From the sequence record ON871820: a stretch of DNA of 64,000 bases; one strand, given 5' to 3'. Of the stretch, positions 12,931-12,978 are shown one piece after another. This stretch comes from Escherichia phage vB_Eco-B1.1. The number at the start of each line of letters is the position of its first letter. Position 1 is the first letter of the stretch. Under the pieces are notes generated by a model. That model was not told the origin of the DNA, did no database searches, and saw nothing but the letters and a program-made list of their open reading frames with translations. A program made the translations under genes and the position numbers.

Positions 12931-12978
12931 GGTACTATACAACTATCAACTGATACGGATTTGGAGAATAAAATGAAA
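12931..12978 (+). repeat. 48-nt leader cassette (-10, leader, SD, AAUAAAAUG)
   Basis: 46/48 identical to 41520-41567. Confidence 0.8.

Follow-up and report, generated by a model that had tools for sequence, protein, structure and literature searches.

Escherichia phage vB_Eco-B1.1 carries two nearly identical blocks of DNA in front of unrelated genes, and these blocks are very probably the downstream part of a T4-type early promoter and translation-initiation cassette, termed PeSL by Krisch and colleagues. As defined by Arbiol et al. 2010 (PMC2839356) and by Comeau, Arbiol & Krisch 2014 (PMC4122927), a PeSL unites AT-rich sequence with an early promoter, a stem-loop, an SD and a start codon. 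In the window, the whole 64,000-nt stretch of record ON871820 that was analyzed, positions 12930-12979 and 41519-41568 are identical at 48 of 50 nucleotides, with 0 such matches expected by chance. A 49-nt pattern with R at the two variable positions matched exactly at 12931-12979 and 41520-41568, nowhere else in the window, and not once in 100 dinucleotide-preserving shuffles. Both differences (12955/41544 and 12970/41559) are A versus G. Upstream, the identity of the pair extends by one base, the T at 12930/41519. Downstream, it runs 4 to 9 nt beyond the ATG, with homology stopping past ATGAAAA. Counted from the first base of the coding sequence, shared homology reaches 8-12 nt.

The observation made in the first-pass annotation, a two-copy block of 48 nt identical at 46 positions, is confirmed, and its interpretation as a cassette that supplies the -10, a leader, an SD and the start codon is supported with corrections. 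Promoter scans, motifs, and comparison with T4 bear out these parts. However, the block, although real, is only the downstream part of a unit of ~95 nt, UP element and -35 included, which T4 carries intact. The block shared in T4 extends further, AAATTTTTTCACAAAAC-GTTTACAAG...TGGTACTATACAACTATCAACT(ACT)GATACGGATTTGGAGAATRAAATGAAAA, and comprises UP, -35, TGn/-10, start region, leader, SD and ATG. Translations containing GTIQLS had been regarded as artifacts, and the ORFs at 12907-13941 and 41373-41942 do read through the leader in frame. For annotation, the cassette accounts for such spurious N-terminal ORF extensions and for "orphan" mini-ORFs behind promoters.

The two copies and their early-type promoters

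The window belongs to a Tequatrovirus (T4/T2-like), and its best matches are 98% identical. The pattern GTTTAC, 18 nt, TGGTAYWAT located 16 early-type promoters on its plus strand, all directly 5' of an ORF and with leaders of 27-43 nt. The genes behind them include ipIII, regB, mobD.5, nrdC.10, nrdC.8, nrdC.4, 55.6, imm.1, sp, mrh.2, modB, motB.2, motB and others. When the 16 leaders were compared from after the -10 through ATG+4, the nrdC.10 and imm.1 leaders had an identity of 0.95 (z ~5); the other 119 pairs had a median of 0.56, and none exceeded 0.74. The pair is therefore much more alike than the early-promoter background, the comparison on which the first-pass annotation had let its proposal stand or fall.

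The nrdC.10 copy, which sits 3' of nrdC.11 in comparison with the T4 reference, has the following features:

12913-12928, plus strand: residual stem-loop GGGAGCC TTCG GGCTT, a truncated terminator 3' of nrdC.11, from alignment with T4
12930-12938, plus strand: TGn extended -10 and -10 hexamer (TGG TACTAT) of the predicted nrdC.10 early promoter
12939-12972, plus strand: conserved start region (ACAACT followed by ATCAAC) and type-A leader of ~28 nt, unstructured
12963-12973, plus strand: SD within GGAGAATAAAA, which is identical to the RegB/S1 cleavage consensus of T4
12973-13941, plus strand: nrdC.10 CDS, 322 aa, P-loop NTPase-like, 99% identical to T4 NrdC.10

The ORF behind this copy, previously called an AAA+ ATPase, is nrdC.10, but Pfam support for that family is sub-threshold: all AAA/STAND matches fell below threshold, and AAA_14 scored 23.1 bits where 27 was required. 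The +1 is predicted at A 12945, seven nt after TACTAT.

Compared with T4 and T2, the window lacks 52 bp at nrdC.10, with a junction at ~12927/12928, between two GCT microhomologies. The deletion left the nrdC.11 terminator without its 3' arm and T-run and the nrdC.10 promoter without its UP element and -35. A consensus scan called neither a terminator nor a -35/-10 promoter at the window site, where the TGn/-10 is kept, and found an intact TTTACA-17-TACTAT with TG at the T4 site. The T4 terminator has an 8-bp stem, a TTCG loop and a T-run and lies ~30 nt upstream of the -35. The window nrdC.10 copy thus has the appearance of a degraded or "half" element. Promoters of the TGn/-10 type can be functional without a -35 (PMC2988021). 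Expression of nrdC.10 in this phage would probably come from nrdC.11 read-through plus weak TGn/-10 initiation, with read-through the likelier source of mRNA because the terminator is deleted. A middle (MotA-box) promoter generated by the deletion, with GGCTTA at 12924-12929, was ruled out by inspection, as it sits 3 nt from the -10 instead of 11-13.

The imm.1 copy retains more of the unit:

41393-41416, plus strand: intrinsic terminator 3' of gene 43, AGGGACC TCCG GGTCCCT and T-run
41475-41503, plus strand: AT-rich UP-like element ATTAAAAGTTTTTTCACAAAACT (41475-41497) and -35 GTTTAC (41498-41503) of the imm.1-site early promoter
41519-41561, plus strand: TGn/-10 (TGG TACTAT, 41519-41527), conserved start region and type-A leader
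41552-41562, plus strand: imm.1 SD GGAGAATGAAA, which departs from the RegB consensus at position 8 only
41562-41942, plus strand: imm.1 CDS, 126 aa, lipobox LTGC, DUF5481, joined to the leader directly at ATGAAAAT

This gene, between gene 43 and imm, is the one that had been described as a lipoprotein next to imm. The consensus scan found TTTACA-17-TACTAT with an upstream TG at 41499-41527, as well as the intrinsic terminator (called at 41393-41410), whose stem-loop lies ~88 nt upstream of the -35 and not immediately adjacent to it. The +1 is predicted at 41534. The stretch TTTTTTCACAAAAC.GTTTAC of this site is common to T4 nrdC.10, e.8, motA and frd.3, and the window imm.1 spacer is closer to the e.8-type spacer than to the T4 imm.1 spacer.

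Shorter copies had also been reported at 8989, 14370 and 60884:

8967-9027, plus strand: cassette heading mobD.5, GTTTAC-18-TGGTACTATACAACTATC, with a different leader, a terminator upstream and ATG at 9025
14348-14408, plus strand: cassette heading nrdC.8, with the same core as nrdC.10 and imm.1, "type-B" leader ACTACGGAGGAACACAAAATG and ATG at 14406
60862-60970, plus strand: cassette of the cef-upstream mini-ORF, with weak -35 ATATAC, TGGTACTAT, a long type-A leader and exact GGAGAATAAAA

The first two are real copies in front of mobD.5 and nrdC.8, but behind the third lies just an 11-codon mini-ORF (60935-60970), and cef, the first real gene, begins at 61010. The leader of this third copy has an identity of 0.95 with that of T4 e.8. 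The type-B leader of nrdC.8 also heads ORF048c of phage RB51 and a 37-aa ORF elsewhere.

The leader and its predicted RegB/S1 site

A complete unit would be composed, in order, of a terminator, an AT-rich UP element, the -35 GTTTAC, a spacer of 17-18 nt, TGn with the -10 TACTAT, the start region, an unstructured leader of ~28-36 nt, the SD and the ATG. Judging from consensus sequences and the T4 literature, host sigma-70 RNA polymerase would fire from this cassette immediately after infection, and the unstructured leader with its strong SD would permit efficient translation. A few minutes later RegB, together with ribosomal protein S1, would cut the leader and turn the message off. The cut is expected because the SD lies inside GGAGAAUAAAA.

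In T4 the RegB/S1 target is an 11-nt single-stranded sequence with GGAGAAUAAAA as its consensus and optimum and GGAGRAYARAA as its general form, that is, GGA(G) followed by an A-rich 7-mer, according to a study of 68 intergenic sites and of mutants, in which 24 sites were efficiently cut and whose text names nrdC.8, 47.1, 55.2 and motB.2 (Durand et al. 2006, PMC1702504). GGAGRAYARAA has only 2 matches in the 64 kb (12963-12973 and 60925-60935; 0.43 expected), both in type-A leaders. The nrdC.10 and cef-upstream sites thus resemble known RegB/S1 sites in having the exact sequence in an early-gene SD, whereas the imm.1 copy, GGAGAAUGAAA, differs by a G at position 8, among the most conserved A positions. 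Both copies have GGAG 7-10 nt upstream of the ATG, and the site is predicted to be single-stranded and coincides with the SD of a gene that follows an early-type promoter. The type-A leader would constitute a perfect RegB/S1 site, a point that may be unpublished. The sequence identities, motifs, population polymorphisms and mosaicism are direct observations; promoter function and RegB cleavage at the nrdC.10 and imm.1 sites are what we infer from them. In the text of the papers searched, no transcript 5' ends, RegB cuts or expression data turned up for the two genes.

ViennaRNA folds of four leaders had z values between 0.0 and +1.0 (nrdC.10, +1.0), no better than shuffles, and the leader therefore appears unstructured. 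An Rfam search of 12700-13200 returned no match, even at E<=1. A structured RNA was rejected on these two results. They also bear on a broader alternative, that the leader is a structured or protein-binding regulatory RNA (a riboswitch, attenuator, sRNA target or a translational operator of the RegA-site type) and that this role has kept it identical. Conservation of the transcribed part across ~500 genomes is compatible with such a role. RegA operators are AU-rich around the AUG, and the surroundings of the AUG are AU-rich here as well. However, the folding energies match those of shuffles (z = +1.0, +0.6, 0.0), Rfam offers no candidate, and RegB/S1, the only protein target with good support, acts on single-stranded RNA and therefore agrees with an early promoter and translation-initiation cassette, not with a regulatory RNA, which we consider extremely unlikely.

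Variation at the nrdC.11/nrdC.10 and 43/imm.1 junctions

The presence/absence comparison across relatives that had been suggested at the outset found both sites polymorphic, with four states between nrdC.11 and nrdC.10 and three between gene 43 and imm.1:

nrdC.11/nrdC.10, state 1: intact terminator and promoter; the majority, ~500 records
nrdC.11/nrdC.10, state 2: 52-bp deletion; the window, 7 records
nrdC.11/nrdC.10, state 3: extra early promoter, 161-aa ModA/ModB-like ART and terminator; T2 and 43 others (44 records)
nrdC.11/nrdC.10, state 4: 49-aa ORF behind a different leader; an IMG/VR contig
43/imm.1, state 1: promoter and type-A leader (...ACTGATACAGATTTGGAGAATAAAATGAAAAT...) heading a 78-aa signal-peptide-like ORF; UFV-AREG1 and 325 others (326 records)
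43/imm.1, state 2: "type-B" leader (ACTACGGAGGAACCGAAAATG, the nrdC.8 leader) and 83-aa ORF048c; RB51, T2 and 29 others (31 records)
43/imm.1, state 3: type-A leader fused to imm.1 at ATGAAAAT; T4 and the window, roughly a third of records

The 52-bp deletion junction occurs in only 7 phage records, among them CrRp10, SP21535, IME537 and ZN18, and ~500 others carry the additional 52 bp. On the IMG/VR contig (IMGVR_UViG_3300045988_128797, L146:1602-2000), the nrdC.10-site promoter has the identical spacer AAGCATAAAGCTTTAT and precedes a different leader, the 49-aa ORF (MKITPIEVKKL...) and then a further ORF.

The third state is an ADP-ribosyltransferase (ART) module that the window lacks:

L003:1449-2045: ART module of T2
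L013:1755-2360: ART module of Citrobacter phage Moon

The likeness of its 161-aa ORF to ModA and ModB comes solely from pairwise BLASTP (27-28% identity, E of 1e-13 and 6e-11). The module is flanked by two copies of ...CCCCTTTTTTATTTCAAAAATTTTTCACAAA.T.GTTTAC. Moon, which belongs to a different genus (Moonvirus), carries the module at the equivalent place. The modules of T2 and Moon are 93-100% identical, versus 55-75% for the flanking nrdC.11 and nrdC.10, and this difference therefore points to a recent inter-genus transfer. The transfer would have been bounded by cassette elements, as the tract of high identity begins at the -35 and stops past the terminator/T-run (terminator/UP element). 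Behind the Moon module, nrdC.10 has kept GGAGAATAAAATG behind an otherwise different leader.

At the other junction, most relatives have either the 78-aa ORF or ORF048c between the leader and imm.1. In the UFV-AREG1-type state, imm.1 lies 3' of the 78-aa ORF and has its own SD, TGAGGAAATTATTATGAAAATCGC. Pfam searches of the 78-aa ORF, ORF048c and the extra ORF of T2 gave no matches. Because the imm.1 SD, GAGGAAATTATT, is common to both ORF-containing forms, the fused form is most parsimoniously derived. By parsimony only, the fused state most likely arose when the 78-aa ORF was deleted between two ATGAAAAT start-codon microhomologies, so that a leader that originally headed this ORF would have become fused to imm.1. 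Some leader haplotypes are common to ORF-present and ORF-absent genomes (for example, ACTAATACGG in L009 and L005), which hints, from few genomes, that the deletion may have occurred more than once. The proposal that the cassette puts unrelated ORFs into the early program is supported, as the same core and type-A leaders head unrelated ORFs, but imm.1 most likely acquired its leader through ORF deletion and not by grafting.

Mosaic cassettes, module exchange and known elements

The 21-nt core TGGTACTATACAACTATCAAC, from the -10 to ~+6, is invariant at 6 T4 sites. A census that combined an IMG/VR scan with the core and a scan of all of T4 placed the exact core, TGGTACTAT-ACAACTATCAAC, at imm.1, nrdC.8, nrdC.10, e.8, motA and the denB/ndd.6 gap, where it heads an 8-codon ORF only (T4 167019-166993, minus strand). 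A metagenome scan with GATTTGGAGAATRAAATG yielded 120 loci, only 2 of them T4-type, because this pattern is too short. Type-A-family leaders head nrdC.10, imm.1, the 78-aa ORF, e.8, motA (a variant), the cef-upstream mini-ORF, the ndd.6-upstream mini-ORF and, in other phages, an 87-aa ORF at the ndd site; the near-identity of the nrdC.10 and imm.1 copies would reflect this common leader. The mini-ORFs of 11 and 8 codons behind complete cassettes look like relics of truncated or displaced genes.

The halves of the T4 cassettes have discordant relationships:

nrdC.10 and frd.3 (T4): upstream-half identity 0.95, leader 0.51
imm.1 and ndd.6-up (T4): upstream-half identity 0.55, leader 0.97
e.8 and cef-up (T4): upstream-half identity 0.64, leader 0.95

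The imm.1 and ndd.6-up leaders are alike through ATGAAAATCGCT, the first four codons of imm.1, with which the T4 ndd.6-upstream mini-ORF begins. Discordant halves require recombination in the invariant core and near the start codon, and the T4 cassettes can therefore be described, from these comparisons, as mosaics of promoter halves and leader halves.

It might be argued that no common descent or recombination is needed and that a strong T4 early promoter and a good SD simply converge on one consensus. GTTTAC-N18-TGGTAYWAT and a loose leader consensus are common to all early promoters of the window, the leader part GGAGAATAAAA is under known functional selection for RegB/S1, and Moon nrdC.10 retains GGAGAATAAAATG even though its leader is otherwise different. 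However, convergence does not account for the excess of the pair's leader identity over all 119 other pairs, for non-consensus stretches such as GATACGGATTT in both copies, for -35/-10 spacers that have no known function and are identical between loci (nrdC.10 and frd.3, 0.95), or for homology that continues into unrelated coding sequence (ATGAAAATCGCT in imm.1 and ndd.6-up). We therefore consider convergence alone highly improbable and favor related, recombining cassettes.

Near-identical copies before unrelated nonessential genes could act as portable homology because there are many of them in a highly recombinogenic genome. Crossovers in the 21-nt core and in the ATGAAAA(T) start region would swap, delete or insert ORF modules. 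It is conceivable, though we think it unlikely, that the core is a preferred crossover point at which halves with UP, -35 and spacer are combined with halves with the 5'UTR, RegB site and first codons. At promoters of such strength, open complexes or R-loops could form and stimulate strand invasion at the core. In that case early promoters would amount to a semi-specific recombination system, beyond patches of homology. Concerted evolution between copies was considered and found unsupported: the (ACT)1-2 leader indel is discordant within genomes (T4 versus UFV-AREG1) and has not been homogenized, and there is therefore no sign that such a process is ongoing.

The suggestion that the cassettes provide homology for modular exchange was borne out locally, with breakpoints in cassette elements at both sites, but not as a general trend. 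Of the 16 differences of at least 40 bp between the window and T4, no more than 2-3 begin or end within 150 nt of an early-type promoter of either genome, where random placement gives 2.1-2.65 (P = 0.36-0.77). Exchange mediated by cassettes is thus one contributor at most; it is well supported at the sites studied, and dominance genome-wide would go beyond the evidence. Several of the large differences coincide with homing-endonuclease (mob/seg) genes. This coincidence, together with the absent cassette enrichment and the location of T4 mobD just upstream of nrdC.11, would be expected if homing endonucleases or another dedicated mobility function drove the polymorphisms by co-conversion of flanks, with the promoter repeats as bystanders. 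However, the breakpoints at both sites fall inside the -35, the terminator/UP, the invariant core or the ATGAAAAT start, the ART module, the 78-aa ORF and ORF048c come with no endonuclease gene, and the window lacks mobD beside nrdC.11. Homing is thus a very unlikely cause of the variation at these two junctions, which we attribute to exchange within the cassettes.

As a kind, the element is already known, as a PeSL, a T4 early promoter and a RegB site. PeSLs cluster upstream of ORFans in hyperplastic regions and border indels (PMC2839356, PMC4122927). Those of T4 and PST have TTTACW-N17-TAYWAT, degraded "half" PeSLs occur in the 43-51 kb (nrdC) region of PST, and an ndd.4/.5 exchange was illustrated in 2014 (PMC4122927). 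In RB49/phi1, PeSLs were studied with reporter assays for promoter and terminator activity and with outward-facing PCR on infected cells or virions, and mini-circles were shown by experiment (PMC2839356). The cassettes described here resemble PeSLs in their AT-rich region, sigma-70-type promoter and SD with start codon at the 3' end, in their repetition before small nonessential ORFs, and in their association with ORF insertion, deletion and replacement. As for the stem-loop, T4 nrdC.10 has a terminator ~30 nt upstream of the -35, the imm.1 site has one at greater distance, and the window nrdC.10 site has only a truncated stem. The ndd-site exchange of 2014 involves the leader family of the nrdC.10 and imm.1 copies. 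The AT-rich region is present at the imm.1 copy (41475-41497) and at T4 nrdC.10 and is deleted from the window nrdC.10 copy. The promoter TTTACW-N17-TAYWAT likewise occurs at the imm.1 site and T4 nrdC.10, with only TGn/-10 at window nrdC.10. Both copies have the SD and start codon, and both junctions are associated with indels, with no genome-scale enrichment in the comparison of the window with T4. The differences from PeSLs are that the window nrdC.10 copy lacks the UP element, the -35 and the terminator, as a "half" PeSL does, that the imm.1 stem-loop is ~88 nt from the -35, and that the cassettes are mosaics whose two halves meet at an invariant 21-nt core, with a 3' crossover in the first codons.

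T4 early promoters belong to the UP/-35/TGn/-10 class (Hinton 2010, PMC2988021; Nolan et al. 2006, PMC1524935), and the cassettes share with them the GTTTAC -35, TGn, a TAYWAT -10, an A/T-rich UP and a position directly 5' of early ORFs. Unlike the promoter consensus, identity here, as known from sequence alone, extends well past it, through the spacer, start region, leader and first codons. There is also a likeness to morons, Botstein's "linker" and integron cassettes (concepts discussed in PMC2839356), as the ART module of T2 and Moon is a promoter, ORF and terminator between resident genes, and conserved flanking sequences target exchange. However, a dedicated integrase or attC-type site is absent here, and exchange seems to depend on general homologous or microhomology recombination.

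The principle was published in 2010 and 2014, and the value of these loci is therefore that of a well-documented example, not of a new mechanism. The origin of the imm.1 leader through start-codon microhomology deletion, the two-half mosaic and the inter-genus ART transfer may be unpublished. One portable unit would bring together strong transcription by the host polymerase, efficient translation and a RegB off-switch of its own, and its homology offers a route to gain, loss and swap of accessory genes, even across genera, as for the ART module.

Several other loci of the window differ from T4. After gene 42, two other ORFs (43086-44566) take the place of T4 b-gt and segA: a Seg-like ORF of 213 aa (42% to SegA over 71 aa, with a weak NUMOD3 match) and a 280-aa ORF. 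The window yielded no homolog of b-gt. An HNH MobD-like ORF (33% to MobD) lies at ~50610-51179, the position of T4 dam, and tblastn gave no match to T4 dam or segF in the window (~50487-51184 region). At 1349-1506, the early-type cassette at 1373 is followed by no more than a 9-codon ORF (1406-1435). Positions 1381-1506 are a denV remnant (tblastn, 42/138 aa, 74% identity), and the phage therefore appears to carry a decayed denV. The remnant lies between IP-like ORFs (1065-1346 and 1516-1776), upstream of ipIII, with ipII absent. At 41950-42347, the imm locus consists of small envelope-type proteins (the imm.1 lipoprotein, imm and 42.1, with the 78-aa signal-peptide ORF in relatives), which fits a variable superinfection-exclusion or envelope module.
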